From Dehalococcoidia bacterium (lineage in GTDB: Bacteria; Chloroflexota; Dehalococcoidia; Plut-88900), in the NCBI GenBank assembly GCA_965116945.1, contig OZ220734.1:598610-662609 (forward strand): a stretch of 64,000 nucleotides of DNA, given 5' to 3'. The position numbers and the translations under genes are program-made. A model generated the notes under the pieces. It searched no databases, had not been told where the DNA came from, and saw only the letters and a program-made list of their open reading frames with translations. This document shows, piece by piece, positions 1-42,075 of the stretch. Every line of letters starts with the position of its first letter. Within the stretch, counting starts at the first letter, position 1.

Positions 1-82
1 AGACGCAGCTACCAACCTGCTGCCGGAGTTTGCGATAGGGTCCGCGGGGCTGGAGGCTGCTTTCGGGGCAGCATATTTTGGG

Positions 83-1123
83 GTGTCGATAATTGCGGGA
101 TTCCTGGTGTACTTCATCGTGTCCAGGATTATCAGAACGGCGGCGGGTAAGACGCGCACCTCCCTGGACGACCTGGTAGTCAATGCGCTGAGCAGGCCAA
201 TCTTTGCGTTCGTCGTCCTGTTCGGGATGTACGCAGGGCTCACGGCCTCGACGTTCCTCGACACCCACCAGGAGCAGGTAGACAGGGGCCTCCTGTCGGC
301 GGTCATCCTGGTTGCGGGATACCTGGTCAGCAGATTGCTACACGCATTGATCTCCTGGTACGGGAGTGAGATTGCAAGCAGGACAGAGACGACATGGGAC
401 GACAGGGTACTACCACTGATCGAGCGGGTGGCCAACGCAGTCATATTCGGGCTTGTGGTGATGCTGGTGCTGCAAGCCCAAGGGCTGAATATCAGCCCCT
501 TGCTTGCAGGTCTGGGCATCGGGGGTCTGGCCGTGGCCCTGGCGGTGCAGCCAACTCTCGCCAATTTCGTAGCGGGAACGTACACGGTGACGGAGAGCGG
601 GATATCTGTGGGCGACTTTATCGAAATAGATGGCGGCGCCTCCGGGTGGGTGGAGCAGGTAGGATGGCGCACTACGAAAATTCGCACTTTCTGGAACAAC
701 CGGGTGGTAATTCCGAACGGGAAGCTTTCGGAGTCGATAGTGACGAATTACCAAGGGCCAGACCCTTCGGTGTATGCCCTGGTGTCGGCGGGCGTGAGCT
801 ACGAGAGCGACCTGCAGCACGTGAATGACGTGGCCCTGGAAGTGACCAACGAGGTTCTGAGCAGGACGGACAGGGCGGACATGAGCTATACGCCAGCGGT
901 GAGGTTCAGTAACTTCGGGGACTCCAACATCGACTTCAACATCATCTTCAAGGTGAAGGGGTTCGTGGACCAGTACGCTATCAAGGACCAGATAATCCGG
1001 GGAGTCCACAAGCGGTTCGGGGAGGAGGGGATAGAGATCAACTACCCGGTGCGGAAGCTGGTCTATCCTCACGAGGTGTCGGGTGGGGAGGGAAACGGGA
1101 GTGCGCCGATAAACGGGGCTTAG
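83..1123 (+). CDS. Small-conductance mechanosensitive channel (MscS family); the reading frame stays open to the window start, so the gene may begin upstream
   Basis: 346-aa ORF with N-terminal TM helices plus a conserved MscS beta/alpha-beta core (...GLNISPLLAGLGIGGLAVALAVQPTLANFVAG...GDFIEIDG..G.VE.VG.R.T.IRT..N...IPNG). No in-frame stop between position 2 and 83. Confidence 0.8.
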   Translation: MSIIAGFLVYFIVSRIIRTAAGKTRTSLDDLVVNALSRPIFAFVVLFGMYAGLTASTFLDTHQEQVDRGLLSAVILVAGYLVSRLLHALISWYGSEIASRTETTWDDRVLPLIERVANAVIFGLVVMLVLQAQGLNISPLLAGLGIGGLAVALAVQPTLANFVAGTYTVTESGISVGDFIEIDGGASGWVEQVGWRTTKIRTFWNNRVVIPNGKLSESIVTNYQGPDPSVYALVSAGVSYESDLQHVNDVALEVTNEVLSRTDRADMSYTPAVRFSNFGDSNIDFNIIFKVKGFVDQYAIKDQIIRGVHKRFGEEGIEINYPVRKLVYPHEVSGGEGNGSAPINGA

Positions 1124-1175
1124 GGGGAGAGGTCTCCGAATTCCTGCAGGATATTGGTTTGTGGGGGGTGAGGTT

Positions 1176-1239
1176 TTGATTGAACGTTGATTGAACATTG
1201 ATTGAAGTTTGATTGAACTCGTAGCTGTTTTGATTGAAC
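1176..1239. repeat. Five direct copies of TTGATTGAA(C/G) at 11-bp phasing (1176, 1187, 1198, 1209, then 1230)
   Basis: Read directly from the sequence. One helical turn per repeat; AT-rich inside GC-rich DNA, just downstream of the mscS-like stop. Confidence 0.85.
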
Positions 1240-1283
1240 GAAGTCTAGAGGGATTTCCGGGGGGGTTGCGTGGCGCGTGGGGC

Positions 1284-1480
1284 GGGAAGGAAACCCTCAC
1301 CCCCTTTATCCCCCTCTCCCCCGTATCGGGGTACGGGGCAGGCTCTTAGGGCCTTTAAGGGAGAGGGGGAGGAAAAAACAGAGGCATACGCCCGCACCCG
1401 GGTGCGGGCGTATGCTTCTAGTTTGATACTGGTGGGAGGGGAAGGATAGATTCCGAACCGGGGGCTGGAATGATGCTGTG
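1284..1480. repeat. Composite intergenic repeat (modules A + D-hairpin + C-like)
   Basis: GAAACCCTCACCCCCTTTATCCCCCTCTCCCC...GGGAGAGGGGGAG, then hairpin ACAGAGGCATACGCCCGCACCCGGGTGCGGGCGTATGCTTCTAG (1378-1421), then a G-rich C-like tail. Related copies occur at many other loci. Confidence 0.8.
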
Positions 1481-1491
1481 GAGGGTTGCAT

Positions 1492-1640
1492 ATCCGGCTT
1501 AAGAAGGGAAACCCTCACCCCTTTGGTCCCCCTCTCTCCCTCGAGGGACTCGGGGCAGGCTCTTCGACTTCGCTCAGGGCAAGCGGAACCCCAACCCCGT
1601 GGGGTGGATGCCCGGCCGGAGTCGGGAATGACGGACAAGG
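1492..1640. repeat. Composite intergenic repeat (modules A + B + C)
   Basis: GAAACCCTCACCCCTTTGGTCCCCCTCTC...CTTCGACTTCGCTCAGGGCAAGCGGAACC...CCGGCCGGAGTCGGGAATGACGG. Confidence 0.8.
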
Positions 1641-2454
1641 AAGGGTGGCGGTGGAAGATACCGGACGGTTTGCGCAGATAGTCGGCGACGCCTGTACCGA
1701 TGCGGGGTGTCCGCTCCATGGGACGGTCCACACCAGCATCGACCCTGCGACAGCCCCATACTTCCGAGAGGATGTGGACGAGACACGAGATATTCTCGCT
1801 CTGGGGCAGTCCCGTCCACCGGAAGTGCTCTACCACCCCAGGGGATGGGAGCGGGGACCCGTGACCGCCGTTCGTAGACCGGAGCTCTCCGATGGTGACA
1901 ACGGTGGAATCCTTATATGGTCTGTTTGTTTTGAGTCGGGCAACCTCCGACTGCTCGGACCGACCGGCAAGGTCTACGCCGGGGGAGTCCGAGGAGGGCG
2001 CTATGGCCCAGGTGAGCATCTTTACACCGTGCTCCAGAGCGTCGCCTGACGGGGCGATACCGTTGCGCCACGTCAGTGGGGCGCTCACTCGGCTGTGGCC
2101 CTTGTAGGGGGCATGCCGTGATTTGTCCGGGAACCTTCCTTGCATGGGGCGGGACGGTGATAGATCGCTGCGAAGGTTTAGGCGTTGGGCCTTTGGGCAG
2201 CGCTTGATGTGGGTGTTGGGTAGGGAAGGACTGGGGAGGAGGCGCGTGTCGGGGGCCGGGCGGTGGGATACCGCTCGGCTGAGACGGGGCTTATGTAGGC
2301 CGGTGCGACTCATGGGACTCCTTTAGTTCCGCCAAGGGGCGGATGTTCCACCTTTCCTGTGATGGGCGCCGAGGTAGGAGGTCGGATGCCTGGGGTGGAA
2401 TATAGTACAGGTGTTCAGGTAGGGTCAAGGGGCGAATGTCCCACTTTTGGGGGG

Positions 2455-2510
2455 AGGGAACCCTCACCCCCGGGGATGGATTCCCGATCGGGGTCGCGAA
2501 TGACGGGGGG
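2455..2510. repeat. Short repeat copy (module A core + module C) at the left edge of low-GC island 1
   Basis: GGGAGGGAACCCTCACCCCCGGGGATGGATTCCCGATCGGGGTCGCGAATGACGGGGGG. Confidence 0.75.
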
Positions 2511-2585
2511 TAGAGGTAGATTTACAGAGGGGGTAAAAGGTCAGTTCATAGACTATTGCGAGTGTCAATTTCACGGGGTTATGGC

Positions 2586-3164
2586 TTATCGCTGCCAGCC
2601 TCTTGAACAATCACCGCTACGGTTTTCTGCGAATAGATCTAGGCTATCATCCGGCCAAGGAGTTTTATCCTTCCTTTGGAATGCCCTGCGAACTTTGGGC
2701 ATTACTCTCCTGGCGACTCTTCTCCGAGGCCACTTATAGATGGCTGAGAAAGAGTCATTGCCGTCAATATTGAGTGCCAGCCGCTGTGGAATCAGGTGAG
2801 GGTTGCGGTCTTCCGGGTCCTTCCGGTAATCAGGGTGATGCGGCAATAGGAGACCAACAACCCCACACCTCTTATTTCTTGGTCGGTCGATGATACTGGC
2901 GGAAATTTCCCAATCGACGTGTTTTCTCTGCCAAGTGCATGGACCAATCAGGACGATGGTTACTACAGCGTCGGCAATGTGGTCATCTCGAATCCTGCGA
3001 CGTATTTCGTCCAGAGGGAGGTTTTCATCGTGGATATCCCCAGGGCTGACAGACTTGTCTATAGCTTTACTGTTCAGTGCCTGCACTAGGCGGTTCTTGT
3101 ACTCCTGGTCGCCCTCGTGGTAGTAACTGATGAATACTTTATATTTGGTTACCTTAGGAGCCAT
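2586..3164 (-). CDS. TIR-domain protein (ThsB-like / DUF1863 TIR_2 family), second TIR gene of the cassette
   Basis: From the internal Met: MAPKVTKYKVFISYYHEGDQEYKNRLVQALN...AVVTIVLIGPCTWQRKHVDWEISASI. This matches the bacterial TIR signature (KVFISY.H.D ... VLIG..T..R.WV.WEI with the conserved Glu). AGGAG lies 9 nt upstream of this ATG; the longer ORF start (3239) would overlap the upstream gene by 60 nt. Confidence 0.75.
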   Translation of the reverse strand: MAPKVTKYKVFISYYHEGDQEYKNRLVQALNSKAIDKSVSPGDIHDENLPLDEIRRRIRDDHIADAVVTIVLIGPCTWQRKHVDWEISASIIDRPRNKRCGVVGLLLPHHPDYRKDPEDRNPHLIPQRLALNIDGNDSFSAIYKWPRRRVARRVMPKVRRAFQRKDKTPWPDDSLDLFAENRSGDCSRGWQR

Positions 3165-3178
3165 AGCTTTTGCTCCTA

Positions 3179-3619
3179 CTACAAAACCCAACCCCAGGAC
3201 ACCAGCACCGTCGAAGTTACTAAAACATAGAATGGCCATATAGATATCGAACCCAAAAGACAGCGCACAACCAAAGGAGACCCCATGCCAACTGGAATTA
3301 CTTTATAAAGGTCGGTACGCTCCAAGTTGCCTTCGTGCAACTTGGATACAAAGTTGTTCTGCGATTTGATGAACGCCCTTTCAAGCGCCAAGTAATAAGA
3401 ATCTAGGAACATGAACAACAATGTTGGCGCCAAGGCTATCAGCACATGCCTAGGCTCTCCCGTCCGCGCCACCAGCACCAGAATGGCTGCGACAAGGGTG
3501 ACGCACCACACCTTGCAATAGCGGCTGTTCTCCGCCATTCGGGTGATTACGCCCTGCATTATCTTAAGGTGCTTTTGGACAGCGGGGGAATCGTGGTCTA
3601 TTTTCGGGTTTCCTGCCAC
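3179..3619 (-). CDS. Small (146 aa) predicted 3-TM membrane protein; candidate effector of the TIR cassette
   Basis: Hydrophobic segments CKVWCVTLVAAILVLVA, HVLIALAPTLLFMFLDSYYLAL and a C-terminal SISIWPFYVLVTSTVLVSWGWVL. Tightly packed between two TIR genes (12-15 bp gaps) on the same strand. No recognisable SLOG, Macro or SIR2 domain. Confidence 0.6.
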   Translation of the reverse strand: MAGNPKIDHDSPAVQKHLKIMQGVITRMAENSRYCKVWCVTLVAAILVLVARTGEPRHVLIALAPTLLFMFLDSYYLALERAFIKSQNNFVSKLHEGNLERTDLYKVIPVGMGSPLVVRCLLGSISIWPFYVLVTSTVLVSWGWVL

Positions 3620-3630
3620 GTTTATGCTTC

Positions 3631-4125
3631 TCAGTGTTTCTTCCGAATCGAGATTGCCTCTTCAACCCAATCTGCAAGATTGTCTCGTATGTGGGAGTAA
3701 AGGTTCTTGCTGTTTGTATACCCACTGCCAAAAGTCTTCACGATGTTTGATAAGTTCCTTTGACCAACAGTGAAATTTTCAAACGGATTTCGTCCTTTCA
3801 GGGCGGTTCTACCATTCGCATTCTTCAGCATATGGATGTAGATGCCTAGTAGCCCCTTCTCGTCGTTCCAGGTTTTTTTTATTTCATATTTGATCCACTT
3901 GCGTTCGGCTGTCTTGCTCCCTATTAGGACGATAACGCAGGATTTCCCAAACATTTGTCTGTCAATCCATTTCTGGATTGCGGCATCGCCGCCTCGCGCT
4001 ATAGTCTCCCACTCGTTATCCGAAACGGGACCATCTTCCTCAACGACGCCCATGTTCCTAATCGTAGCTGCACGCCAAGCGTCACGGGTGTAGTGAAAGC
4101 TGAAGAATGTTCTCCTCTTGACCAT
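3631..4125 (-). CDS. thsB: Thoeris ThsB-like TIR-domain protein
   Basis: MVKRRTFFSFHYTRDAWRAATIRNMGVV...CVIVLIGSKTAERKWIKYEIKKTWNDEKGLLGIYIHMLKNANGRTALKGRNPFENF follows, almost motif for motif, the Bacillus cereus ThsB pattern as I recall it (VFFSFHY..D..R..VRN ... CVLIGS.T..R.WV.YEI ... GI.I ... KG.NPF). GAGAGGA lies 7 nt upstream of the ATG. Confidence 0.8.
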   Translation of the reverse strand: MVKRRTFFSFHYTRDAWRAATIRNMGVVEEDGPVSDNEWETIARGGDAAIQKWIDRQMFGKSCVIVLIGSKTAERKWIKYEIKKTWNDEKGLLGIYIHMLKNANGRTALKGRNPFENFTVGQRNLSNIVKTFGSGYTNSKNLYSHIRDNLADWVEEAISIRKKH

Positions 4126-4339
4126 TGGTTGTCCTCTCGATGCAATACTCCCAAAATATTGCTCTGCCCATGTTCCTACAATTTCTCGCTACACTCCTCT
4201 AGTTGCACGTTCTAGGAGGAATATGTCAGTTAATATCTCCTCCATGGGCTGGATGGGTTGGGGTTTGTTGAAATGGAAGGTGGCAATTGATTTCAGAGTT
4301 TATTTTACGCTGCTAGGCAAATCTGCTGGGTTGTGGAGC

Positions 4340-4368
4340 GGATTCCCGAGTAGTCGGGAATGACGGAG
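4340..4368. repeat. Module C repeat copy (GGATTCCCGAGTAGTCGGGAATGACGG) at the right edge of island 1
   Basis: Direct-orientation match to the module C copy at 2478-2510; contains the short inverted repeat TTCCCGA/TCGGGAA. Confidence 0.75.
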
Positions 4369-4450
4369 GGGAAGGGTTGGATGTCGGTTCTGTTTCGATT
4401 CGCTATGCTAAACTCAATTTCCAACCCCACTCGACATCAGGAGGAGAGAT

Positions 4451-4972
4451 ATGGACGCCAGTGAGCTGGTAACGAAGCTGCTGAAGGGAAACCGGAGTAT
4501 GGTCAGGAAGGCTTTTGACGGGCTTTCGGATGAGGAGGTTTCGATGAGGCCGAGTGGGGATTGCAATTCCATGGCGTGGCTGCTGTGGCACCTGTGTCGG
4601 GTGGAGGATGGATTTATATCGGCGCTGGAGGGGTCGGAGGAACTCTGGAACCAGGGGTGGTCGGAGAAGTGTGGGATATCCGAGGAGACGGAGGGGATGG
4701 GTTACGGACACAAAGCGGGAGACCTGGAGACATTCAGCGTGGGGTCGATTGATGCGCTGAAGGAGTATTTCGGGGAGACGGAGAGGAGGGTGGCCGGGTA
4801 CCTGGCGTCGTTGAGCCCCGAGGACCTAGACAGGGAGGTGCCGGCGATGGTGGGCGAGGGTATGGTGCCATTGGCTGCGCATTTACAGATTCTGGTGAAT
4901 GAGGCGTTGGTGCATGGGGGGCAGATTGCTTACTTGAGGGGGATGCACAAGGGGATGGGGTGGTATTTCTAG
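4451..4972 (+). CDS. DinB/YfiT-like (DUF664) four-helix-bundle metal-dependent protein
   Basis: 173-aa protein with a DinB_2-like pattern (WLLWHL.R.ED...H.GQI.YLRG). GGAGGAG RBS upstream. Confidence 0.55.
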   Translation: MDASELVTKLLKGNRSMVRKAFDGLSDEEVSMRPSGDCNSMAWLLWHLCRVEDGFISALEGSEELWNQGWSEKCGISEETEGMGYGHKAGDLETFSVGSIDALKEYFGETERRVAGYLASLSPEDLDREVPAMVGEGMVPLAAHLQILVNEALVHGGQIAYLRGMHKGMGWYF

Positions 4973-4984
4973 AGCGTGAGGGGT

Positions 4985-5195
4985 GGGAAGGGAACCCTCA
5001 CCCCCTTTATCCCCCTCTCACGCCACAGGCGCACGCCTAGGCGCATCTTCGACCCTTAGGGCCTTTAAGGGAGAGGGGGAGAGAAGAACAGAGGCAGAGG
5101 TTGGCGCATCTGCGCCAACCTCTGCCTCTAGTTCAGTACTGGGGAGATGGGAGGGATGGATTCCCGATCGGAGTCGGGAATGACGGATGAAGAGG
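4985..5195. repeat. Composite intergenic repeat (modules A + D-hairpin + C)
   Basis: GGGAACCCTCACCCCCTTTATCCCCCTCTC...GGGAGAGGGGGAG...AGAGGCAGAGGTTGGCGCATCTGCGCCAACCTCTGCCTCT (perfect 19-bp stem)...GGATTCCCGATCGGAGTCGGGAATGACGG. Confidence 0.8.
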
Positions 5196-5205
5196 AGGGA
5201 GAAGG

Positions 5206-6207
5206 CTAGGTGAGGGTCAGGGCGGCGGCGCCGTTGATATGGCCTTGTTTCAGGTCTATGAGGGCTTCGTTGGCGGATTCGAGGGGGTAGGGGTGGACGT
5301 GGGTGCGGACTGGGATTTCGGCGGCGAGGGAGAGGAGTTCTTCGACGTCCTGTCGGGTGCTGTTGGCGGCGCTGCGTATGACTTTCTCGTCGTAGAGGTG
5401 TCGGGTGTAGTCGAGGGTGGGGATGGGGGTCATGTAGATGCCCGCTAGGGAGAGGAGACCACCCTTCTCCAAGTGTTCAAGGGCCAGGGGGACCAGCTCG
5501 CCGGCTGGGGCGAAGATGATGGAGGAGTCGAGCTTGTTGGGCGGGCCCTTTTGTGCGGTTCCGACCCAAACTGCACCCAGGTCTCGGGCGAGGGAGGCGT
5601 GCTGTTCGCTTCTGGAGAATACGTAGACTTCGAGCCCCTGGTGCACGGCTAGCTGGATGACTATGTGGGCCGATCCGCCGAACCCGTACAAGCCCAGCCT
5701 GCCACCGGGTGGTACGTCGGCAAGACGGAGGGCGCGGTAGCCGATTACGCCGGCGCAGAGGAGGGGCACGGCCTGGAGGTCTGGGAAGGCGTCGGGAACA
5801 GGGAAGGTGAAGGACTGGTCGCTGAGGAGGTAGTCGGCATAGCCGCCGTCGACGGTGTAGCCGTTGAAGAGGGCGGCTTCGCAGAGGTTTTCACGGCCTC
5901 GGAGACAGAACGAGCAACGGCCGCAGGTGCTGTGGACCCAGGGAATACCGACACGGGTGCCGACCTCCAGGCCGTTCACGCCTTCGCCCAGCTCTTGAAC
6001 GGTCCCAACTACCTGGTGGCCGGGGGTCAGTGGGGACTTCCTGGGCGGGAGCTCTCCCTCGATAACGTGGAGGTCGGTGCGGCAGACACCGCAGACAGAA
6101 ACCCGAACGAGGACCTGACCCGGGCCCGGGGAGGGGATGGGGACATCGTTGAGTTCGAGCGGTCGGCGCTCCACTGGTGTGGGAGCGCTGAAGGACATGG
6201 CTCTCAT
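5206..6207 (-). CDS. Zinc-dependent alcohol dehydrogenase (MDR superfamily)
   Basis: CGVCRTDLH, GHQVVGTV and C.RC.FC structural-Zn motifs plus a GLYGFGGSAH Rossmann motif. Start moved to the internal MRAMSF to remove a P/S/T-rich N-terminal extension. Confidence 0.8.
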   Translation of the reverse strand: MRAMSFSAPTPVERRPLELNDVPIPSPGPGQVLVRVSVCGVCRTDLHVIEGELPPRKSPLTPGHQVVGTVQELGEGVNGLEVGTRVGIPWVHSTCGRCSFCLRGRENLCEAALFNGYTVDGGYADYLLSDQSFTFPVPDAFPDLQAVPLLCAGVIGYRALRLADVPPGGRLGLYGFGGSAHIVIQLAVHQGLEVYVFSRSEQHASLARDLGAVWVGTAQKGPPNKLDSSIIFAPAGELVPLALEHLEKGGLLSLAGIYMTPIPTLDYTRHLYDEKVIRSAANSTRQDVEELLSLAAEIPVRTHVHPYPLESANEALIDLKQGHINGAAALTLT

Positions 6208-6223
6208 GGATCGGGTGAGGGGC

Positions 6224-6835
6224 CTAGTCGTAGACCTCGAGTTGCAGGTCGGAGGGGTTGTAACCGTTGCAAGCGTTGAGGTCCTGGGGACAGGCTGAAC
6301 CTGCGACAATGAGGTCGTCCAGGGCAAGGAGGACGACGTAATCACCGGCACGGGAGACGGGCTCTTTTACGGAGAGGTTGCCCTCATCGTCGGGGCCGCT
6401 GTTCTGGAAGATATTGAAGACCTCGGGGGTCACGGGCGGGTGGATGTCGAGGGTGGCGAGGGCTTCAAGGACGTTCTCCTTGCAGCTTCGGTGCTCGGTG
6501 ACTTCGTAGTCGATGAGATATCGCTGGGGGTCGCAGGGGGCGTAGAGCATGTCGTGGATGCCGATGGTGGTGTCCTCAACGAAGGCCATGATGGCGTGGC
6601 GGTGGTTGTCGTAGAGGGTGTCGCCGACGCGGGGGCGAACTCGGGCGATAGTGCTCCGGGTATACACTCCCGAGAGGTAGACGGAAGTGTCCGACGCTCG
6701 AAGGGCGAAGAAATCGCAGACCTGTTTTCCTTCAACGTCTGTGACCTTGACCTTCTGACCGCCACGCACGATTACGGCGCGACCGTGTCGGGCGGGAATG
6801 GTGACGGACTCGACCAATTTTCCTAGCTCTGCCAT
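6224..6835 (-). CDS. DUF1989 family protein (urea-carboxylase-associated-like)
   Basis: About 200-aa protein resembling the DUF1989 fold; the internal Met (MAELGK) has AAAGGGGG upstream. Assignment from recalled family features. Confidence 0.5.
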   Translation of the reverse strand: MAELGKLVESVTIPARHGRAVIVRGGQKVKVTDVEGKQVCDFFALRASDTSVYLSGVYTRSTIARVRPRVGDTLYDNHRHAIMAFVEDTTIGIHDMLYAPCDPQRYLIDYEVTEHRSCKENVLEALATLDIHPPVTPEVFNIFQNSGPDDEGNLSVKEPVSRAGDYVVLLALDDLIVAGSACPQDLNACNGYNPSDLQLEVYD

Positions 6836-6989
6836 GAGTGCCCCCTTTGGTTGAACCTGGAAGTTCTTCACGCGTCCGGGTTCGGGTATAGGGTAGTATA
6901 TTCCCTCCACGGATGAAATTACGAGATGCGTGGACTAGAATTGGCGTAACCGGGCTCTTGCCAAGGCGCCAGTTTCAGGAGGGACAATA

Positions 6990-8438
6990 ATGAGCAGCAG
7001 GTACGTTGACGTTATCGTGCACGACGGCGAGGTGGTGACCTCGAAGGATGTGACCCGAACCAGCATCGCCGTGAAGGACGGGAGAATCGTGGCCCTGGGG
7101 CCGAAGGAACTGCTGCCGGAGGCGGGGCAGTACATCGATGCCTCGGGGAAGTACGTTCTGCCGGGGGCGATAGACGCGCATATGCACATAGACCCGCTGA
7201 AGTGCGACGACTGGGTGAACGCACCGCTCGCGGCTGCGCACTCGGGGATAACGAGCCTCATCGTATTCTGCATCTACGACGACCTGAACGGTGAGACGAT
7301 TCCCGATGCCTTGAGGCGGAACCAGGAAGAGGCGAAGGCGGGGTCGGTGCTGGACTACGCTTTCCACTTCATCCTGCACAAGCAGCCCTACGTGCTGGAA
7401 GGATTGCCCGAGGCTTTCGACATGGGGGTTACCTCCTACAAGATGTTCATGACCTACAAGACCCGGAAGTACCGCATGTGCTCCGACGACTTCATCCTGC
7501 AGGCGATGGACGTAATAGGCAGCAACGGAGGCGTGACCCAGCTGCACTGCGAGAACGGTGACGTGCTGGACTACCTGCAGACCAAGTTCATGTCGGAAGG
7601 GTGCACGCACCCGCGGTACTTCCCCCAGTCCTGTCCACCGTGGGCGGAGGCGGAGGCAGTAAACAGGGCGATAAACATGGGCGCAATGACCCAGTGCCCG
7701 ACTTACGTGGTCCACCTGAGTACCCAGGGTGGACTTGAGAAGATCAGGGAGGCGCAACAGCAAGGGCAGCGGATCTGGACCGAGACCTGTCCCCAGTACC
7801 TACTCCTAACAGACGCTGAGATGGAGAAGTGGGGACCTCACGCGAAGATCGGGCCTCCGTTGAGGCCGGAAGACGGGCCGGACCAGGAGGCGCTGTGGGG
7901 TGGTCTCCAGGGCGGCCAGATCTCAATTGTCGCGAGCGATCACTCGGCGACGCACAGGGAGAAGAAGGAGTCCGGGTGGGACAATGTATTCCAGGACGCA
8001 CAGGGTAACACCGTGCCGTTTGGCAGCGCTTCAGTGGAGACCATGCTGCCGCTGATGTACAGCGAGGGGGTGGTGAAGCGGGGGATGTCGATTACGTGGA
8101 TAGCGCGGGCGCTGGCGGAGAACCCGGCCCGGGTGTTCGGGCTGTACCCGCGTAAGGGCGTCATAAATATCGGCTCGGATGCGGACCTGCTGCTAATCGA
8201 CCCGAACTACGAGCGCACTATCACGGCGTCGGACATGAAGAGCAATGCAGGGCTGACGCTATACGAGGGCTGGGGGCAAAAGGGACGTCCGTGGATGACA
8301 ATGGTGCGAGGGGAGGTGGTGCTGAAGGAAGGCGAGATCCTGCAGAAGCCGGGTTATGGAGAGTTCGTGCGCTGCGGAGGTCCTATGGCGCCATTAGGCG
8401 GGCCGGTGCCGACCTCGCCAGTCGGGGTTGAGAACTAG
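6990..8438 (+). CDS. Cyclic amidohydrolase (dihydropyrimidinase/hydantoinase/allantoinase-like)
   Basis: 482 aa with GAIDAHMHID and a ...HCENGD... metal-ligand pattern typical of DHOase-type amidohydrolases. Confidence 0.8.
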   Translation: MSSRYVDVIVHDGEVVTSKDVTRTSIAVKDGRIVALGPKELLPEAGQYIDASGKYVLPGAIDAHMHIDPLKCDDWVNAPLAAAHSGITSLIVFCIYDDLNGETIPDALRRNQEEAKAGSVLDYAFHFILHKQPYVLEGLPEAFDMGVTSYKMFMTYKTRKYRMCSDDFILQAMDVIGSNGGVTQLHCENGDVLDYLQTKFMSEGCTHPRYFPQSCPPWAEAEAVNRAINMGAMTQCPTYVVHLSTQGGLEKIREAQQQGQRIWTETCPQYLLLTDAEMEKWGPHAKIGPPLRPEDGPDQEALWGGLQGGQISIVASDHSATHREKKESGWDNVFQDAQGNTVPFGSASVETMLPLMYSEGVVKRGMSITWIARALAENPARVFGLYPRKGVINIGSDADLLLIDPNYERTITASDMKSNAGLTLYEGWGQKGRPWMTMVRGEVVLKEGEILQKPGYGEFVRCGGPMAPLGGPVPTSPVGVEN

Positions 8439-9322
8439 GGCCTGAAGGACCGGAACTGGGGGCCGTCTTTGGGGGCCCAGCTGTCGGCTACGACCTCTCG
8501 TGGGAAAGAGTCGGGGAGGACGCCGTCGGTGGCGTATTCGTAGAGAGCGGCAACGTAGATTGCCTTGAGGGCAGCGGTAACCAAGATGAGCGCACCCAGC
8601 CCCACCACCCCCAAGGCCACGGCTATGACTATGCCCGCGGGAGCGGGGATGATAAAGGCGATTACCACGCAGACCAACACGATGGGAATGGCCACGATGA
8701 TGACCATGAGATCGAATCCGAACCTGCTGACCAGCTGCTCTCCCCATGTCCTTCTAAGCAAGGCTGCCGACCGTTTGATGGCCTCTATGGGACCAACACC
8801 CTCGACAACCAGCACGGGAATCACGAGGTAGGTGAAGACCGACCAAGCCCCGCGCAGCAGCCACGTTACCAAGACCAAGGCAAAGGCGCCGATGCCACCC
8901 CGGCTCCTTGCCGCCTTTTCCAAGGCGTAGAAGATAAGGGACACGATGGCGGATATGAAGGCCCAGCCAAGGATGCCGACGATGTTGGAATTGGCGGCGC
9001 GGAAGCCGTCCCGGAGGGTAGGGTCGCCGCCTCGGAGGCGGATACGTGCTGCGCCGATTAGGGCGGCGTTAAAATATATGATGATGAAGTAGTTGACGAA
9101 GTAGAAGATGCCCATGAGCAGGTAGTCGGTGGGTACCAGGGCGAGTTCGCCTTCTGTGGAGTCGGCGGCGCGGAATACCATGCCGGAGCCGAAGATCATG
9201 GCGGCGGTGATAACCAAGGCGATGGTTGATATCAGGGGGAAGACGAGCAGCTCCTTATCGTGGAGGAGGACCCTCCAGCAGACTTTGTAGAGCTGCCAGC
9301 TGCGACCGATGGTGGCGAACAT
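8435..9322 (-). CDS. Polytopic integral membrane protein of unknown function
   Basis: 295 aa with 6 or more hydrophobic helices and ordinary codon usage. Confidence 0.5.
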   Translation of the reverse strand: MFATIGRSWQLYKVCWRVLLHDKELLVFPLISTIALVITAAMIFGSGMVFRAADSTEGELALVPTDYLLMGIFYFVNYFIIIYFNAALIGAARIRLRGGDPTLRDGFRAANSNIVGILGWAFISAIVSLIFYALEKAARSRGGIGAFALVLVTWLLRGAWSVFTYLVIPVLVVEGVGPIEAIKRSAALLRRTWGEQLVSRFGFDLMVIIVAIPIVLVCVVIAFIIPAPAGIVIAVALGVVGLGALILVTAALKAIYVAALYEYATDGVLPDSFPREVVADSWAPKDGPQFRSFRP

Positions 9323-9451
9323 GGGGGAGATTATACGCTTTTCAAGGATGGGTGCGCGACGCCGAATATCTTGCTACGGGTTACCTTGGAGAAATAGTGA
9401 TCTTGGCAAATGCGGTTTTAACTCGACAAGGGACCGCTGCCACTTCATTAT

Positions 9452-9739
9452 TTGAGGATGACAAAGGACTCTGGTCGAACAAATAAGTCCTGCGCAGGCC
9501 CCACATCAAAGGGCAGGCTGGAGACTTTCAGGTTTCTAGCAGTATTTGAGACCAATGAAGACGGATGGGAGACAGTCAGCTGTCCGTCTCTTCCGGGGTG
9601 CCACAGTCAGGGACGAACGAGAAGTGAATCCGTCGCAAATGCCAGGGAAGCGATACGGGGTTACTTGGGGAGTATGCGAGATGACGGTATACCCCTTCCT
9701 GCTTCTGATGCTTGCGAAGTAGTTGAAGTGACGGTATAG
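9452..9739 (+). CDS. HicB-like (UPF0150) antitoxin-fold protein; start uncertain
   Basis: ...FLAVFETNEDGWETVSCPSLPGCHSQGRTRSESVANAREAIRGYL matches the HicB N-terminal domain. No ATG sits immediately before the domain, so the N-terminal 30 aa of the ORF may be spurious. Confidence 0.55.
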   Translation: MRMTKDSGRTNKSCAGPTSKGRLETFRFLAVFETNEDGWETVSCPSLPGCHSQGRTRSESVANAREAIRGYLGSMRDDGIPLPASDACEVVEVTV

Positions 9740-9885
9740 CGGCCTGCATTCCCCAAAACGCCCTGCGACAAGGTCGTTCGGGCGGTTGCAGCTTCAAGTT
9801 TCTGAGACAAGGGTAATGGCCAAATTTTCCTGTATACTCGCGCCGGTTTTGGCACGGGACCAGGGCCACGGGAAAGGAGCTCGGG

Positions 9886-11169
9886 GTGACTACGGCGGCA
9901 ACGGCAGACAGGACCTCAAAGCCGGAGGAGGGAGGCGCCCTTGCGACGGCGCTGGAGCAGTTCGAGACGGCGGCCGACTTCCTGGGCCTGGACGAGAACA
10001 TCCGGCAGATCCTGAGAAAACCCAAGAGAGAGCTTATAGTCCACTTCCCCGTGACAATGGACGACGGCCGCGTCGAAGTATTCACGGGGTACCGGGTGCA
10101 GCACAGCATGTCCCGGGGCCCGGCCAAGGGAGGCATCCGATACCATCCCGACGTCAGCCTGGACGAGGTCCGCGCCCTGGCCATGTGGATGACCTGGAAA
10201 TGCGCTGTTGTGGACATTCCATTTGGAGGTGCGAAGGGCGCTGTCGCATGCGACACGAAGCTGCTCTCCATAAAGGAACTGGAAGGGTTGAGCAGGCGAT
10301 ACGCCAGCGAGATATCGATAATAATCAGCCCGGAAGGCGACATTCCGGCGCCCGACATGAATACGAATGCCCAGATCATGGCGTGGATAATGGACACCTA
10401 CAGCATGCACCGCGGCTATTCGGTGCCGGGGGTGGTGACAGGGAAGCCGTTCAGCGTCGGGGGGACTAGGGGCAGGGTGGAATCGACGGGGCGGGGTTGC
10501 ATGAACATGGCCAAGCAGACGGCAAAGCACCTCTCCATGCCGTTGGAAGGGGCGAGGATAGCGGTGCAGGGGTTCGGGAACGTGGGATCGGTAGCGGCGA
10601 GGATGCTTGAGGAGCAAGGATGCAAGGTAATAGCCGTCAGCGACGCCTCGGGCGGGGTATATAGGGACTCGGGGCTGGACGTGGGGGCGATGGTTGCCGA
10701 CAAGGAACACACCCACAACCTCCGGGACTCGAGGCACGGGGACCGGATAACCAACGCCGAGCTCCTGGAGCTGCCCTGCGACATCCTGATGCTGGCGGCC
10801 ATGGAAGGCCAGATAACCGAGGCCAATGCCTCCAACGTGAAGGCCAGGATCATCGTTGAAGGGGCGAACGGGCCGACTTCAACGGAGGCAGACAAGATCC
10901 TGGTGGACAAGGGCGTTTTCATAGTGCCGGACATTCTTGCCAATGCGGGCGGAGTCATCGTCTCCTATTTCGAATGGGTGCAGGACCTGCAGTTCTACTT
11001 CTGGGAGGAGCAGGAAGTGGAGAAGCGGCTGGACTCGATCATGAAATACAGTTTCGAGTCTGTGCTGGCGACGGCGGAAGAGAATAAGGTGAGCATGAGA
11101 ATGGGGGCTTACATCCAAGGGGTGAGTCGGGTGGCGGCAGCGCACAACACCCGGGGCATCTACCCCTAG
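9886..11169 (+). CDS. gdhA: Glutamate dehydrogenase (Glu/Leu/Phe/Val dehydrogenase family)
   Basis: GGAKGAV and GFGNVGS motifs; GTG start with a GGAAAGGAG RBS. Confidence 0.9.
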   Translation: MTTAATADRTSKPEEGGALATALEQFETAADFLGLDENIRQILRKPKRELIVHFPVTMDDGRVEVFTGYRVQHSMSRGPAKGGIRYHPDVSLDEVRALAMWMTWKCAVVDIPFGGAKGAVACDTKLLSIKELEGLSRRYASEISIIISPEGDIPAPDMNTNAQIMAWIMDTYSMHRGYSVPGVVTGKPFSVGGTRGRVESTGRGCMNMAKQTAKHLSMPLEGARIAVQGFGNVGSVAARMLEEQGCKVIAVSDASGGVYRDSGLDVGAMVADKEHTHNLRDSRHGDRITNAELLELPCDILMLAAMEGQITEANASNVKARIIVEGANGPTSTEADKILVDKGVFIVPDILANAGGVIVSYFEWVQDLQFYFWEEQEVEKRLDSIMKYSFESVLATAEENKVSMRMGAYIQGVSRVAAAHNTRGIYP

Positions 11170-11232
11170 CATTCGAAACTGCCACACTTGCAAATTCCTG
11201 CGATGATTCGATTATGAGATTCCCACGCGCCT

Positions 11233-12450
11233 ATGAATGACAGAACGCTTGGCGGAATCCGGGTGGTGGAGCTGGGGAGCCTGGTATCGGCGCCATATTG
11301 TGCGCGGTTGATGGCGGCTCTCGGGGCGGAGGTGATCAAGGTGGAGCCACCAGAAGGGGAGAAGGCCCGAGAGCATGGACCCTTCCCCGGTGGAGATCCC
11401 CATGCCGAGAAGAGTGGACTCTTTCTGGCGATGAACCTGGACAAGAAGGGCGTCACGCTAGACCTGAGGTCGGGAGCAGGGGCGGAGGTGTTCAAGAAGC
11501 TGATAGCTAAGTCGGATGTGGTTGTGGAAAACGGGCCGCCGGGGTGGCTGGAAGAGGTGGGGCTGGGGTACGAGTCGCTGAAGGCGAAGACCCCGGGGTT
11601 GATCATGGTGTCGATTACCCCTTTCGGGCAAGACGGGCCGTACAGGGACTACGCAACCCACGACCTGAACCGATGGCATGCGGGTGGCTGGGGATATCTG
11701 TGGAAGGAACGCAGCGCAGAGGGTACACCCGGCCGAATGGTCCGGGGGCCAGGTTTTCTGCCAGCCTTCCAGGCTGCCTACAACGCCCTGACAGCGGTCG
11801 TGGCGGCGTTGTATTTCCGGGATATGGGTGGGGAGGGGCAGCACATTGACGTCTCCGAGCAGGAGTCTATGGCATTTATACTGAACGGCGCTTTTCCGGT
11901 GTACAACGGCCTGAATCAGATACATGGGAAGGACGTGGCGATTCCGGCGTCAGTGCCCTCGGGGGTGCTTCCCTGTCGCGACGGATACGTGTTGATCAGC
12001 GCGATCGAATATCACCAGTGGGAAGGCCTGGTGAAGATGCTGGGAGAACCGGAATGGAGCCAAGCAGAATGGGCCAGTACGGTGGAGGGCCGACGCCTGA
12101 ACTTCGACATCATAAATGCGTTTGTGTTGGAGTGGCTGGAAGACAAAGACGCGGACTGGGTGGTGAAGAAGGCGATTGAATACAGGATACCGGCCAGTCC
12201 CGTGGGGGTGACGGCGGGGCGTATCTTTGGGGACGAGCACCTGAAAGAAAGAGGATTCTTCGCGGAGATTGATCACCCGATTGCCGGAAAACTGGCCTAT
12301 CCCTCGGCGCCGTACAGGTTCTCGGAAACGGAGAGTTTCGCTCGGTTGCCAGCACCGCTGCTGGGCCAGCACAACAACGAGGTTTTCGGTGAAATTCTGG
12401 GGCTGGAACAAGATGCGGTGGCCCGGTTGAAACAAGAAGGGAACATCTAG
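11233..12450 (+). CDS. CoA-transferase family III (CaiB/BaiF)
   Basis: N-terminal L.G.RV.ELG...A.PYC...LA.LGA.VIKVE and a C-terminal GQHN motif. Confidence 0.85.
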   Translation: MNDRTLGGIRVVELGSLVSAPYCARLMAALGAEVIKVEPPEGEKAREHGPFPGGDPHAEKSGLFLAMNLDKKGVTLDLRSGAGAEVFKKLIAKSDVVVENGPPGWLEEVGLGYESLKAKTPGLIMVSITPFGQDGPYRDYATHDLNRWHAGGWGYLWKERSAEGTPGRMVRGPGFLPAFQAAYNALTAVVAALYFRDMGGEGQHIDVSEQESMAFILNGAFPVYNGLNQIHGKDVAIPASVPSGVLPCRDGYVLISAIEYHQWEGLVKMLGEPEWSQAEWASTVEGRRLNFDIINAFVLEWLEDKDADWVVKKAIEYRIPASPVGVTAGRIFGDEHLKERGFFAEIDHPIAGKLAYPSAPYRFSETESFARLPAPLLGQHNNEVFGEILGLEQDAVARLKQEGNI

Positions 12451-12453
12451 GAA

Positions 12454-13695
12454 TTGGCTGTCGGAGAAACACCCCCGGGAGTTACAAAGGGGGCGCTGGC
12501 GGGTGTAAGGGTGGCAGATTTTACAGCGTCGTGGGCGGGGCCTCACTGCGTGTCATTGCTGGCGTTCATGGGCGCGGAGGTAATCAAAATCGAGAGCCGT
12601 TCCAAACTGGACCTGGCCCGTTACTACCCTCCTTTCAAGGATGGCATCGAAAGTCCCGACAGGGCAATGTGGTTCGCACAGATGCATCGAAACAGCCTGA
12701 GCGTAACCCTGAATCTGCGGGAGGCCGAGGGCGTTGAGATAGCCAAGCAGATCGTGGCGATTTCGGATATAGCGGCGGAGAACTTCCGGGCCGGGGTGGC
12801 GGACAGGTTGGGGCTGGGATACAGGGACCTAGTGAAGGTGAATCCACAGGTAATCATGGCATCGCTATCGGGGTTTGGGGCGTATGGGCCCCGGTCTCGG
12901 TGGGTCACCTATGGCATGCACGTGTCGAACATCTCGGGGCTGATGGGAGGGGTGGGGTACCCGGACACGGACCCGGTGTCGGACTGGGTAGAGTTGCCGG
13001 ACCCCTCGGGAGGGGTGGCGGGGGCCTCGGCGGTACTGGCGGCGCTTCATTACAGGCTGAGGACAGGAAAGGGGCAGCACATAGATCTTTCGGAGGAGGA
13101 GACGGCAATCGGGTTTCAATCCGAAAAGCTGATGGACTACGCGATGAACGGTAGGGAGGCGGAGCGAATGGGAAACCGGGCCCCCGGCATGGCGCCTCAC
13201 GGAGTTTACAGGTGCGCCGGCGATGATGAATGGGTGAGTGTAGCTGTCGAGAGCGAAGAGGAATGGGAAAGGTTGTGCTCGGCGATTGGCAAGGCTGAGC
13301 TTGCCAGGGACACAAGATTCAGGACGCTGGCGGTACGTAAGGAGAATGAAGGTGCCCTGGACGAGATAGTCGAGTCGTGGACACGGGTTCGGTCCAAGTG
13401 GGAGGTGATGAAGTCGTTACAGGGGTCGGGGGTGGGGGCAGTGGCGACATTCACAAATGAAGACCTTTATCAGGACGAACACCTGGCAGCGCGGGGGTTC
13501 TTCACGTGGGATGAGCACCCGGTGCAGGGTAGGGCAAGGATGCCTGCCCAGCCGTGGAAGATGTCCGAGACGCCGCTGGCGATGACCCGGCCGGGGCCAA
13601 CTATGGGGGAGCACAACGGGCATGTGCTGGAGGAGTTGTTGGGGCTGGGTCGGGGGCAGGTTGAGGAGTTGGAGGGGCGGGGGGTGGTGTATTAG
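12454..13695 (+). CDS. CoA-transferase family III (CaiB/BaiF), paralogue of the preceding gene
   Basis: Same family signature; starts 4 nt after the preceding gene. Confidence 0.85.
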   Translation: MAVGETPPGVTKGALAGVRVADFTASWAGPHCVSLLAFMGAEVIKIESRSKLDLARYYPPFKDGIESPDRAMWFAQMHRNSLSVTLNLREAEGVEIAKQIVAISDIAAENFRAGVADRLGLGYRDLVKVNPQVIMASLSGFGAYGPRSRWVTYGMHVSNISGLMGGVGYPDTDPVSDWVELPDPSGGVAGASAVLAALHYRLRTGKGQHIDLSEEETAIGFQSEKLMDYAMNGREAERMGNRAPGMAPHGVYRCAGDDEWVSVAVESEEEWERLCSAIGKAELARDTRFRTLAVRKENEGALDEIVESWTRVRSKWEVMKSLQGSGVGAVATFTNEDLYQDEHLAARGFFTWDEHPVQGRARMPAQPWKMSETPLAMTRPGPTMGEHNGHVLEELLGLGRGQVEELEGRGVVY

Positions 13696-13859
13696 GGGGG
13701 TTAAAGGTGGGTATGCCATCCACTCAAAGAGGAACTATGCACGGGGAAGGGTGAGTGGAGACCAGGGATGTGAATAGCAGGCAGGCGCTTTAGGTCTCTC
13801 GCGGGGCCTCGGGATGAGTTGTCGGAGGGGGAGTGGATCGGCGATTGCGGACGCTTGGA

Positions 13860-14040
13860 TATGCCTGGGCCTCCCCTCCGCTCATACTTCGAGGGCCTCA
13901 GCACGAGCGGCCCCACCGCCGGGGAGGACAGGCACGAGAACTGCCTCTACGGGGAGAGGACGGGATGCTCCACACCATTCCGCTCCTGAGACGCTTCGAC
14001 TCCGCTCAGGGCGAGCGGAATACCCCAACCCGCGGAATGT
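13860..14040. repeat. Two module-B repeat copies
   Basis: CCGCTCATACTTCGAGGGCCTCAGCACGAGCGG and CGCTTCGACTCCGCTCAGGGCGAGCGGAATACC. Confidence 0.75.
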
Positions 14041-14043
14041 TCC

Positions 14044-14514: not shown

Positions 14515-14530
14515 GATGCGTTCAGGATGA

Positions 14531-17207: not shown

Positions 17208-17239
17208 TGATGGTCATTCCTTCCGGCGATTTGGTTGGT

Positions 17240-17725
17240 GGTGAATAAGCCCCCGGGGGCCGGGGGAATGATACAACATCGGGGTGGGGAGGTGGGGGAC
17301 AGCGGTGATGCAGTGGAAACGGGAGGATACCCCCGACCCCACAGAGGAACCCTCTCCCCCTTGGTCCCCCTCTCCCTTAGGGCCTGTAAGGTAGAGGGGG
17401 AAAGAAGAACAGAGGCATACCCCATGCGCTAAAGCGCATGGGGTATGCCTCTAGTTCAGTACTGGGGGGTGGGGAGGTGGGGGATGATGACGGTATTATG
17501 GGTGTACGGGTGGTCCTGTCCCCGGCGCTAGAATCACCCTCACCCTAGCCTTCTCCCGTCAAGAGGTCTTTGCGTAACTCCGCGTTAGGGGAGCGCGACA
17601 CCCCACCCATTCCGCTCTTGAGACCCCCTTCGAGAGCCTCAGGACATGCTTCGACTCCGCTCAGGGCGGGCGGAATCCCATACCACAGGGCATGGTTTCC
17701 CGATCGGAGTCGGGAATGACGGAGA
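17240..17725. repeat. Cluster of repeat modules (C-like, A + D-hairpin, C-like, A-prime, B, C)
   Basis: GGGGTGGGGAGGTGGGGGA occurs on both sides of the A+D unit (17281-17300 and 17461-17480). D-hairpin AGAGGCATACCCCATGCGCTAAAGCGCATGGGGTATGCCTCT (perfect 19-bp stem) sits at 17411-17452. Confidence 0.8.
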
Positions 17726-23065: not shown

Positions 23066-23201
23066 GGGGGTGAAGGTGATCCCTCACCCTGAGCCTCTGG
23101 CAGGCCCATCCCAGCCCACCGCTCATACTTCGAGGGCCTTGGCACGAACAGCTCCACACCAGGCCGCAAAAGATATTCACGACTCGTAGTTAGAGGGAGA
23201 A

Positions 23202-24362: not shown

Positions 24363-24495
24363 GGGCGAGGCGCGACAGAAGGGCAGTTACGGGCCACCCC
24401 CGCTCGACCCTTCGAGTGCCTCAGGGTGAGCGGCCCCACCGCAACGGGGGGACGGAGATTTCGGCAAGACATCCAGAGAGCCCGGGGGAACGGAG

Positions 24496-25671: not shown

Positions 25672-25843
25672 GGGGCAGGCGCGAAGGAATGGCAGGGGTG
25701 GGCCGAGCCCCCCGCTCGACCCTTCGACTCCGCTCAGGGTGAGCGGCCCCACCCCAGAACGCGCTTGCAGACTATCAGGGACGGCAAGGAGGACGGCGAG
25801 GTGTGCTATTCTGCCTCTGACTATTTATCTCGGAGGTGATTTT

Positions 25844-26889: not shown

Positions 26890-27045
26890 CTGTTTACCCA
26901 ATACCGAATCACCCTCACCCTAGCCCTCTCCCGTCGAGGGAGAGGGGACGAGACCACTCCCACCCGACCCTTCGAATTATCTCAGGGCGAGCGGCCGAAC
27001 ACGGGGATGGATTCCCAATCAGAGCCGGGAATGACGACTGGCGAT
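26890..27045. repeat. Composite repeat (modules A-prime + B + C)
   Basis: ATCACCCTCACCCTAGCCCTCTCCCGTCGAGGGAGAGGGGA...CTTCGAATTATCTCAGGGCGAGCGG...GGATTCCCAATCAGAGCCGGGAATGACGAC. Confidence 0.8.
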
Positions 27046-29479: not shown

Positions 29480-29560
29480 CCTACGTCGATACTCGGGCCA
29501 GCGCGGGCCCCCCTCTCATACTTCGAGTGCCTCAGCATGAACGGCCCCACCTCGCGATGG
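29480..29560. repeat. Module-B repeat copy
   Basis: CCCTCTCATACTTCGAGTGCCTCAGCATGAACGGCCCC. Confidence 0.7.
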
Positions 29561-33139: not shown

Positions 33140-33215
33140 GTGGGCCACCCTCCCGCTCATACTTCGACTACGCTCCCGCCCGAGGCGGATCTGCGACAGC
33201 ATGAGCGGCCCCTCC
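33140..33215. repeat. Module-B repeat copy in the leuS upstream region
   Basis: CCGCTCATACTTCGACTACGCTCCCGCCCGAGGCGGATCTGCGACAGCATGAGCGG (hairpin CCGCTCAT/ATGAGCGG). Confidence 0.7.
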
Positions 33216-41999: not shown

Positions 42000-42075
42000 G
42001 CACGGCATCACCCTCACCCTAACCCTCTCACGCCTGAAGCGCATCTTCGACCCATCAAGGGAGAGGGGACCGGGG
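42000..42075. repeat. Module A-prime repeat variant at the duplication junction
   Basis: ATCACCCTCACCCTAACCCTCTCACGCCTGAAGCGCATCTTCGACCCATCAAGGGAGAGGGGA. Confidence 0.7.

Follow-up and report, generated by a model that had tools for sequence, protein, structure and literature searches.

The BoxC repeat is a G/C-rich intrastrand triplex motif, TM(ECO), with the layout CCCTCTCCC-loop-GGGAGAGGG-TTA-GGGTGAGGG (Holder et al. 2015, Nucleic Acids Research, PMC4666352). It is found in more than 260 genomes, always in intergenic regions, and is tied to local rearrangement (PMC4666352). In Neisseria, the dRS3 repeat (ATTCCC-N8-GGGAAT; ATTCCCgcCTgcgcGGGAAT) bounds the neisserial intergenic mosaic elements (NIMEs) and is the target of an enzyme of the insertion sequence (IS) type IS110 (PMC3046118). 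Repetitive extragenic palindromes (REPs) are defined by a GT[AG]G (or CGTC) tetranucleotide located 0-2 nt from the hairpin foot (PMC6006769). Here we characterize a family of intergenic repeats in a 64,000-nt stretch of contig OZ220734.1 from a Dehalococcoidia bacterium (the window), which is assembled from modules A to D, the last of them a long hairpin. We think it probable that these are lineage-wide intergenic mosaic repeats in the manner of NIMEs and of the bacterial interspersed mosaic elements (BIMEs) of E. coli, that the covariation seen in D comes from templating at the DNA level, and that D has a terminator-like secondary use.

Two of the modules have counterparts in these systems. 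On the minus strand, module A' reads CCCTCTCCC-loop-GGGAGAGGG-CTA-GGGTGAGGG, the layout of TM(ECO) type A; the three-block layout is present at 26908-26950 and, with variations, at 17531-17560 and 42007-42070. Compared with E. coli it shows 93-95% identity over 41 nt (matched in 4112 of 5426 genomes), and it also matches Sinorhizobium, Azospirillum and Rhizobium replicons. Judged by sequence, module A' is the BoxC/TM(ECO) motif. It is likewise intergenic and associated with variable regions, but here it is fused with D, a tail and module C, and often carries loop inserts and G5/C5 runs. Module C has a dRS3-like form: the copy at 4340-4366 and the subtype ATTCCCGACTCCTCGGGAAT fit the N8 spacing, the main type has N10, and other feet read ATTCCT/AGGAAT and ATTCCG/CGGAAT. 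Its subtypes in the relatives' loci carry compensating inner stems (CGA/TCG, TGC/GCA and GGC/GCC). The likeness to NIME/dRS3 covers the mosaics of short intergenic units, the ATTCCC-N8/10-GGGAAT form with its variable self-complementary center and the use of both as mobile-element targets. The differences lie in the mostly N10 spacer, the GAC(G) that follows C, the polarity conferred by asymmetric flanks and the host phylum; in addition, neither an IS110-type recombinase nor a filamentous prophage was seen here.

With REP, BIME and REPIN (paired-REP) sequences (PMC3733652, PMC6006769, PMC3116915) the family shares high-copy 20-45-nt hairpins, mosaic structure, a preference for convergent and tandem intergenic regions and the role of IS target. 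The hairpins also fit the REP description of a basal stem paired along all of its 7-20 nt below a 2-5-nt loop, in many intergenic copies. Its stems, however, are perfect and longer, and its strand polarity is strong. The GT[AG]G/CGTC tag is absent within 0-2 nt of the feet of A, B, C and D (the D flanks are (G/A)AAC and AGTT(C/T)), and inverted doublets, the units of REPINs and BIMEs, were not found, the copies being co-oriented. A Y1 transposase was not detected by HUH...Y motif or tblastn in 570 kb around 69 copies plus the window, a search with approximate queries and limited sensitivity. Of the REP/BIME-like role suggested by an earlier, sequence-only reading of the window, the likeness to BIME-type mosaics holds, and canonical membership of the REP family with its REP-associated tyrosine transposases (RAYTs) is not supported.

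Single-stranded DNA elements of the IS200/IS605 type and their miniature derivatives are also hairpin-bearing and strongly biased in orientation relative to replication, but the present units lack a defined left end and right end, genes for TnpA or TnpB were not found in the sampled loci and the window, and Rfam gave no omega-RNA or HEARO match in the window. Integron attC sites carry R''/R' (RYYYAAC / GTTRRRY) and L boxes and extrahelical bases, and lie in arrays beside intI. Here only AAC/GTT and one bulged A are present, and the sites are scattered among housekeeping genes. For modules B and D no published or database counterpart was found. The family is best filed as a new, strand-polarized form of BIME/NIME-type mosaics, in which BoxC- and dRS3-type blocks are reused alongside a long hairpin specific to the lineage. 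Mosaics in Chloroflexota are thus also built from the BoxC/triplex motif and from dRS3-like hairpins, both known in Proteobacteria.

Compensatory change in hairpin D

Hairpin D is composed of a 4-bp outer stem, a bulged A, a stem of 18-19 bp and a loop of 2-4 nt, with (G/A)AAC pairing with GTT(C/T) across the bulged A. It had been described as a 17-19-bp stem-loop; the stem-loop is there, but the helix runs 4 bp further, past the bulged A. The window holds three copies, whose inner stems are self-complementary as previously noted:

1376..1424, + strand: copy 1 of hairpin D; AAAC/GTTT as outer stem, the A at 1420 bulged, a single G-T mismatch in the core (1380-1419)
5086..5134, + strand: copy 2 of hairpin D; perfect core (5090-5129)
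17407..17457, + strand: copy 3 of hairpin D; core (17411-17452) with perfect arms of 20 bp

The folding energies of the three cores, taken as single-stranded DNA, range from -23 to -28 kcal/mol, with z-scores between -7 and -12. Copy 1 is followed by TTTTTT on the minus strand, and copy 2 lies 77 nt past the stop of a minus-strand dehydrogenase gene (5206-6351).

We scanned one genome per GTDB species with the pattern CAGAGGCA-N20-44-TGCYTCTAGTT, which matched at least 105 stretches. Among the matches listed, ~70 were true D copies, all from Dehalococcoidia metagenome-assembled genomes (MAGs) of at least seven species (OY760104, OY764147, CBDBLV01, OZ241876, OZ244800, CBDFLQ01 and DAOUKX01), and the remainder were chance matches in unrelated taxa, without the palindrome. 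Confinement of the modules to the 64-kb window had been named as one result that would refute the proposal; D with the same flanks is present in at least seven MAG species, so the family extends beyond the window. Upstream (5') of every true copy lie a module-A hairpin and a purine spacer, and downstream (3') AGTT(C/T)(A/G)GTACTGGGG, often followed by a C-type hairpin.

The inner stems of the three window copies had been called completely different, and a lack of relationship among them had been named as the other refuting result. Over 72 copies, they turn out to grade step by step into one another through paired changes (GAGGTTGGCGC, GACGTTGGCGC, GACGTGGGCGC, GACGTGGGTGC, GGCGTGGGTGC, and on to GGCGCATGTGC, TACGCATGTGC, TACGCCTGCGCC, AGCGCCTGCGCC, TGCACCTGCGCC), that is, they are diverged relatives and not unrelated sequences. 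Covariation was assessed on 65 distinct copies oriented by their flanks. The proposed compensatory change was confirmed, with both-side changes in 10 of 19 pairs (197 cells), and 99.1% of the cells in the 19-pair helix were paired. None of 500 shuffles reached a covariation score as high, and sliding the partner by 1-3 columns lowered pairing to 28-51%. As the search pattern fixed the outer seven pairs, the 12 inner pairs that it left free give the fair pairing figure: 706 of 719 cells are Watson-Crick (98%). Neighboring copies that the pattern had not selected carry the foot AGAGGGA/TCCCTCT (locus L033) or AGAGACG/CGTCTCT (L037), so the seemingly invariant foot of D also covaries. RNAalifold, run on 30 full elements, recovered both the 14-bp A helix and the D helix, with the outer D pair as G-C in 17 sequences and A-U in 10 (a GAAC/GTTC to AAAC/GTTT swap).

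Next, we compared the kinds of change with those expected of RNA and of DNA. G-U pairs are the usual intermediates in RNA helices. In the D helix there were 4 G-U cells against 12 other mismatches, i.e., no G-U excess. Asymmetric loops were found both ways round on identical stem and flanks, with reverse-complement counts of 6 AAC and 4 GTT, 5 TTCT and 4 AGAA, 5 TTCA and 3 TGAA, 5 CAAG and 2 CTTG, and 3 TAT and 1 ATA. Within identical stems there were 16 flipped loop pairs against 7.9 expected, a number that 18 of 2000 shuffles reached, and 45 of the 67 copies with asymmetric loops have the reverse-complement loop type elsewhere in the family. Arm homogenization and inversion of a short spacer between long arms are documented products of replication template switching (PMC8604942), a single event of which can introduce compensatory changes of several bases and invert loops (PMC8794818). 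The lack of a wobble signal, the flip-flop loops and this published signature together argue for maintenance at the DNA level and not for covariation of the RNA type. Between the two sources that the sequence-only reading had offered, selection on structure and palindrome-templated copying, the evidence favors copying at the DNA level, and RNA-level selection is not needed for the covariation.

D resembles the template-switched inverted repeats of the Ripley model (PMC8604942, PMC8794818) in its homogenized arms, multi-base compensatory changes and inverted 2-4-nt spacers; those, however, were described in scattered inverted repeats and rRNA hairpins, whereas D is a multi-copy family with constant flanks. 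In six syntenic locus pairs between species, four D hairpins were identical and two differed in the loop only, with flanks 5-15% divergent; constraint on D is visible in these pairs. The covariation is genuine and is most simply accounted for by arm-to-arm templating at the DNA level together with loss of unpaired copies.

Strand polarity of the modules

We then examined how the elements are oriented. The flanking 7.5 kb (with the element masked) is G-rich on the + strand of the element in 69 of 72 D copies (p = 3e-17), and the same polarity holds in 66 of 72 on called coding sequence only. Counted by module, orientation on the G-rich strand is 44:3 for B, 85:1 for C, 71:2 for D, 65:5 for the tail and 96:22 for the left block of A (A-left). 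In the window, the + strand carries all the oriented module matches at the 13 listed loci. More than 95% of the units are co-oriented relative to the G/C asymmetry of the chromosome, whatever the direction of the neighboring genes. The A-left block is C-rich in its own sequence, so composition does not account for its position on the G-rich strand. The GC skew of the + strand of the window is 0.21 on + genes and 0.16 on - genes, so the skew belongs to the chromosome strand and not to transcription. Over the whole window and all the Dehalococcoidia loci, the skew is ~0.17 on genes of both orientations. With E for the element, the neighboring genes were arranged as -E- in 23 cases, -E+ in 19, +E- in 15 and +E+ in 4; elements do not take their direction from the genes.

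Near-total polarity is unusual for mosaic repeats and points to replication-linked spreading or to strand-specific selection. BoxC itself lacks a strand bias in E. coli (13 copies on the + strand and 10 on the - strand), unlike its counterpart here, and a replication-relative orientation bias is known for IS200/IS605, IS91, IS110 and IS607 (PMC3971601). One tentative and unlikely proposal is a replication-coupled system, in which a non-RAYT enzyme acting on single-stranded DNA hairpins would insert or keep the units on one template strand and re-template the hairpin tops; it would explain why a BoxC-type motif is polarized here and unpolarized in E. coli. Alternatively, the polarity may be selected, triplex- or G-quadruplex-prone structures being tolerated on one template strand only. 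Motifs resembling FtsK orienting polar sequences (KOPS) or SpoIIIE recognition sequences (SRS) were considered as its cause and rejected: G-rich 8-mers in general are one-stranded, 96-100% on one strand even within genes (for example GGGGAGGG, 78:2), and no specific motif stands out. Along OZ241876.1, CBDBLV010000005.1 and OY760104.1 (loci L001-L103), the sign of the skew switches many times, together with repeat orientation. Possible sources of this switching are numerous inversions, mis-joins at repeats and an unusual layout of replication.

Templating, termination and other explanations

Under the explanation we favor, a mutation in one arm of D would be followed by template switching within the palindrome, or by hairpin-templated repair, that erases the change or copies it to the other arm, and the same process would now and then invert the loop. 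Copies left unpaired would be removed or would decay, and the outcome would be stems that differ by degrees yet are almost perfectly Watson-Crick paired, set between flanks that stay constant. The strand polarity suggests that spreading is linked to single-stranded DNA at the replication fork. Several observations weigh against this account. The search pattern fixed CAGAGGCA and TGCYTCTAGTT, and the invariance of the outer stem is partly ascertainment. A flipped loop was seen in none of the six syntenic pairs, so flipping is not fast. We infer template switching from its signature, and selection on a DNA or RNA hairpin could also keep the arms paired; the processes are not exclusive. The skew sign switches at least seven times in 3.4 Mb of OZ241876, and the element strand switches too, so the G-rich strand cannot be equated with today's leading strand; the polarity is tied to skew blocks, which may be past inversions or assembly joins. 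A mobilizing enzyme was not found in the sample of ~570 kb of relatives' genomes. The scarcity of D in divergent regions is weak (p = 0.07), with gene calls taken from an in-house caller.

A possible but rather unlikely alternative is that D, and perhaps other hairpins, are RNA-level intrinsic terminators or 3'-end stabilizers, with the covariation due to selection on the RNA stem. Read along the minus strand, TTCTTCTCTC or GTTTTTT comes after D, and the window copies rank first to third among minus-strand terminator-like hits in 1-20000, the D tails being T/C mixtures except in an A-run subtype. Among the 32 D copies with both neighbors called within 700 nt, 12 were convergent, 16 tandem and 4 divergent, and in 24 of the 32 (p = 0.007) the right-hand gene was on the minus strand and ended to the right of D. 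Moreover, D lies downstream of a promoter-bearing unit (the X unit, below) in the window and in L078, L028 and L013. Yet orientation follows the skew and not the genes (+E+ and -E+ contexts both exist), G-U pairs are not enriched, loops are freely inverted, stems of 22-23 bp go well beyond terminator need, modules A, B and C have no U-tract, and the total of terminator-like sites is 14 against 14.8 in shuffles. The gene position and the T/C-rich tract on the minus strand make it plausible that D serves, as a secondary role, as terminator or 3'-end hairpin for the gene of the C-rich strand that ends to its right; such a role leaves the polarity, the flipped loops and the other modules unexplained. 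We also considered a terminator-promoter cassette with an outward promoter in each composite, and rejected it: only 4 of 70 D copies have the conserved -10 element close by, and this element is part of the X unit. That the A-D unit is a multi-copy structured small-RNA gene with its own transcript seems most improbable. Two strong helices make up its consensus fold, and 30 of 30 sequences show compensatory changes, but there is no conserved promoter beside A-D, no Rfam match, the composition is mosaic with truncated copies, and the pairing is of the DNA type.

Mobile-element readings were weighed on the same material. Recombinase target sites that mark entry hotspots of foreign genes, as dRS3 does for IS110-type enzymes and attC for integron integrases, are an improbable explanation. 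It draws on the dRS3 form of module C, on the two direct C copies that flank the lower-GC candidate PDC-M50 defense genes at 2586-4125, on the repeated entry of an IS481-like element into the A loop and on the attC-like build of D (fixed base, bulged base, variable top). On the other hand, no IS110 or integrase gene was found among the multi-copy open reading frames (ORFs), the attC R-box consensus is reduced to AAC/GTT, the units are scattered among housekeeping genes, and the bracketing is a single case. Canonical REP or REPIN sequences moved by a RAYT (TnpA-REP, Y1 HUH) encoded elsewhere in the genome are decidedly improbable: the high copy number of intergenic hairpins with loops of 2-4 nt, the base that bulges from the stem and a polarity that resembles the single-stranded-DNA-transposing IS200/IS605 (PMC3971601, PMC6006769) would fit, but the missing foot tag, the co-orientation of copies that should form inverted pairs and the negative Y1 search, with its limited sensitivity, do not.

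With their constant flanks, graded stems and flipped loops, the D paralogues form a natural data set on the persistence of long perfect hairpins, and they caution that compensatory change is no proof of selection on RNA structure.

Modules, their gain and loss, and neighboring genes

All four modules were found at the coordinates given by the sequence-only reading, with counts far above the dinucleotide-shuffled expectation, and its description of a modular repeat family lying mostly at gene ends is borne out; it spoke of 14 or more loci, whereas its list holds 13. With up to 3 mismatches allowed, module C (GGATTCCCGATCGGAGTCGGGAATGACGG) was matched 4 times in the window and 0 times in shuffles, and its 13-nt core TCGGGAATGACGG gave 5 against 0.2; module B gave 5 against 0, ACCCTCACCCY 7 against 0.27 and GGGAGAGGGG 6 against 0.9. 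A repeat finder, run independently, clusters the same loci (families D13-D20, I4 and I15). Modules B and C are hairpins as well, with a constant foot and a variable interior, and there are further recurrent pieces, namely a GGGG..CCCC hairpin upstream and the tail GTACTGGGGAG. The family is built from at least five small units of hairpin- or triplex-forming type, joined in varying combinations. Besides the three D copies, the window contains:

1290..1370, + strand: module A, ACCCTCACCCC block and hairpin CCCCCTCTCCC...GGGAGAGGGGG, with a 23-nt insert in the loop
1449..1473, + strand: degenerate module C (GATTCCGAACCGGGGGCTGGAATGA)
1506..1588, + strand: left part of a second module A, followed by module B (CTTCGACTTCGCTCAGGGCAAGCGG, 1562-1586)
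1606..1634, + strand: module C hairpin
2457..2506, + strand: module A left block and module C (2478-2506)
4340..4366, + strand: module C, ATTCCC-N8-GGGAAT (dRS3-like), the only copy in a divergent intergenic region
4990..5080, + strand: module A with loop insert
5158..5186, + strand: module C, consensus copy
13878..13910, + strand: module B, short form (CCGCTC...GAGCGG)
13977..14021, + strand: module B, full hairpin ATTCCGCTC...GAGCGGAAT (-13.6 kcal/mol, z = -4.9)
17330..17406, + strand: upstream GGGG..CCCC hairpin and compact form of module A
17531..17722, + strand: BoxC-type module A', full B hairpin (17609-17677) and module C (17694-17722)
23081..23151, + strand: A'-like block and module B, 3' of the first M24 peptidase paralogue
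24401..24434, + strand: module B
25711..25748, + strand: module B
26908..27037, + strand: module A', reverse complement of BoxC/TM(ECO) type A (26908-26950), B (26959-26996) and C (27006-27037)
29512..29545, + strand: module B
33153..33210, + strand: module B with insert
42007..42070, + strand: module A' with loop insert

Rfam at the gathering threshold gave no hit anywhere in the window, and by E-value only sub-threshold hairpin matches in 1100-2600; tRNA and tmRNA genes were looked for in the window and none was found.

The units come and go as discrete blocks. The window derives from a relative of the MAGs listed above, and a segment near its repeats is 78-89% identical to L078, L028 and L103. 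A B-B-C block of ~100 nt lies within the X copies of L103 (flipped, 7030-7125) and L013 (6895-6970), and at the same point, after ...CTGGGGAGGAG, the X copies of the window (about 2240), L078 and L028 are uninterrupted. In L103 the block has a 10-nt direct repeat, TGGGGAGGAG, on both sides, which may be the insertion footprint of B/C units. The syntenic loci L019 and L088 hold one and two A-D units, respectively, and truncated and degenerate D copies were also found. Furthermore, a 1.31-kb IS481-like element (terminal inverted repeat TGTATAGACCGGGGA, 401-aa rve-type ORF, 5-bp duplication GGCCT) interrupts the module-A hairpin precisely at its loop in six loci (L015, L017, L026, L033, L037 and L056), in both orientations. 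A plasmid search with A-D-C and B-C gave nothing beyond one short match to C. This match (31-36 nt, 92-97%) is to positions 53557-53592 of NZ_CP087125.1, a 395-kb replicon of Sulfurovum mangrovi (Campylobacterota), and C-type hairpins may have spread across phyla.

The X unit occupies 1640-2450 on the minus strand. It has a conserved sigma-70-type promoter (TTGACC-18-TATATT, 2428-2399) and a 5' hairpin, as well as a Shine-Dalgarno sequence and a start codon (ATG, 2313) that are conserved in 11 other loci. Its truncated product corresponds to the first half of a terminase-type RNase H-like nuclease domain (Terminase_6C-like) and shares 42% identity with residues 7-106 of P0002, an intact protein of 204 aa (E = 2e-23); relatives carry PF17289. 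The frame continues into modules C, B and A, which produces a spurious 335-aa ORF (1306-2313); repeats of this kind give long spurious ORFs and can seed rearrangements and mis-assemblies. Truncated copies were found in at least 17 sampled loci (including L078, L028, L103, L013, L035, L082, L051 and L100), some with a 160-nt internal tandem duplication, and intact homologues at L106 and L107 occur without modules. We had considered 1640-2450 to be non-coding, given its lack of codon periodicity and equally conserved frames; it is instead a decayed truncated gene fragment, and at 80-90% identity the power of both tests was too low. Approximately 33250-33720 on the minus strand is a second copy in a more decayed state, where the promoter TTGACC-17-TGTGCTATATT is followed by RVYATGIDLAG...; it is 96% identical to L015 over 380 nt and directly adjoins a low-GC island. 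The X unit may be a mobile-island relic or a functional unit.

Both X copies of the window adjoin lower-GC genes of defense type. At 2586-4125 (minus strand, GC 0.52), two ThsB-like proteins with Toll/interleukin-1 receptor domains and a PDC-M50A homologue form a candidate PDC-M50 (PDC-M50A/B) defense system, which lies between the direct module-C copies 2478-2506 and 4340-4366 and beside the X promoter. The island at 33750-38508 (minus strand, GC 0.46-0.49) starts at the promoter end of the second X copy and is probably a defense island, with a DNA methylase and a 693-aa HerA/DUF87-type ATPase at 33750-36928; a 523-aa protein of the island gave no family match.

Finally, the window holds two tandem paralogue arrays. 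Three M24 peptidase/creatinase-like genes (21905-25671) each have a module B copy after them, and four to five acetyl-CoA hydrolase/transferase-like genes lie at 40513-48704; the repeat seems to have been copied along with the gene in such arrays. A 142-nt direct repeat, 93% identical between 49040-49181 and 49504-49645, bears in each copy the hairpin GGGGCCTTCCAGTTGATTGGAAGGCCCC, which is unrelated to A-D.

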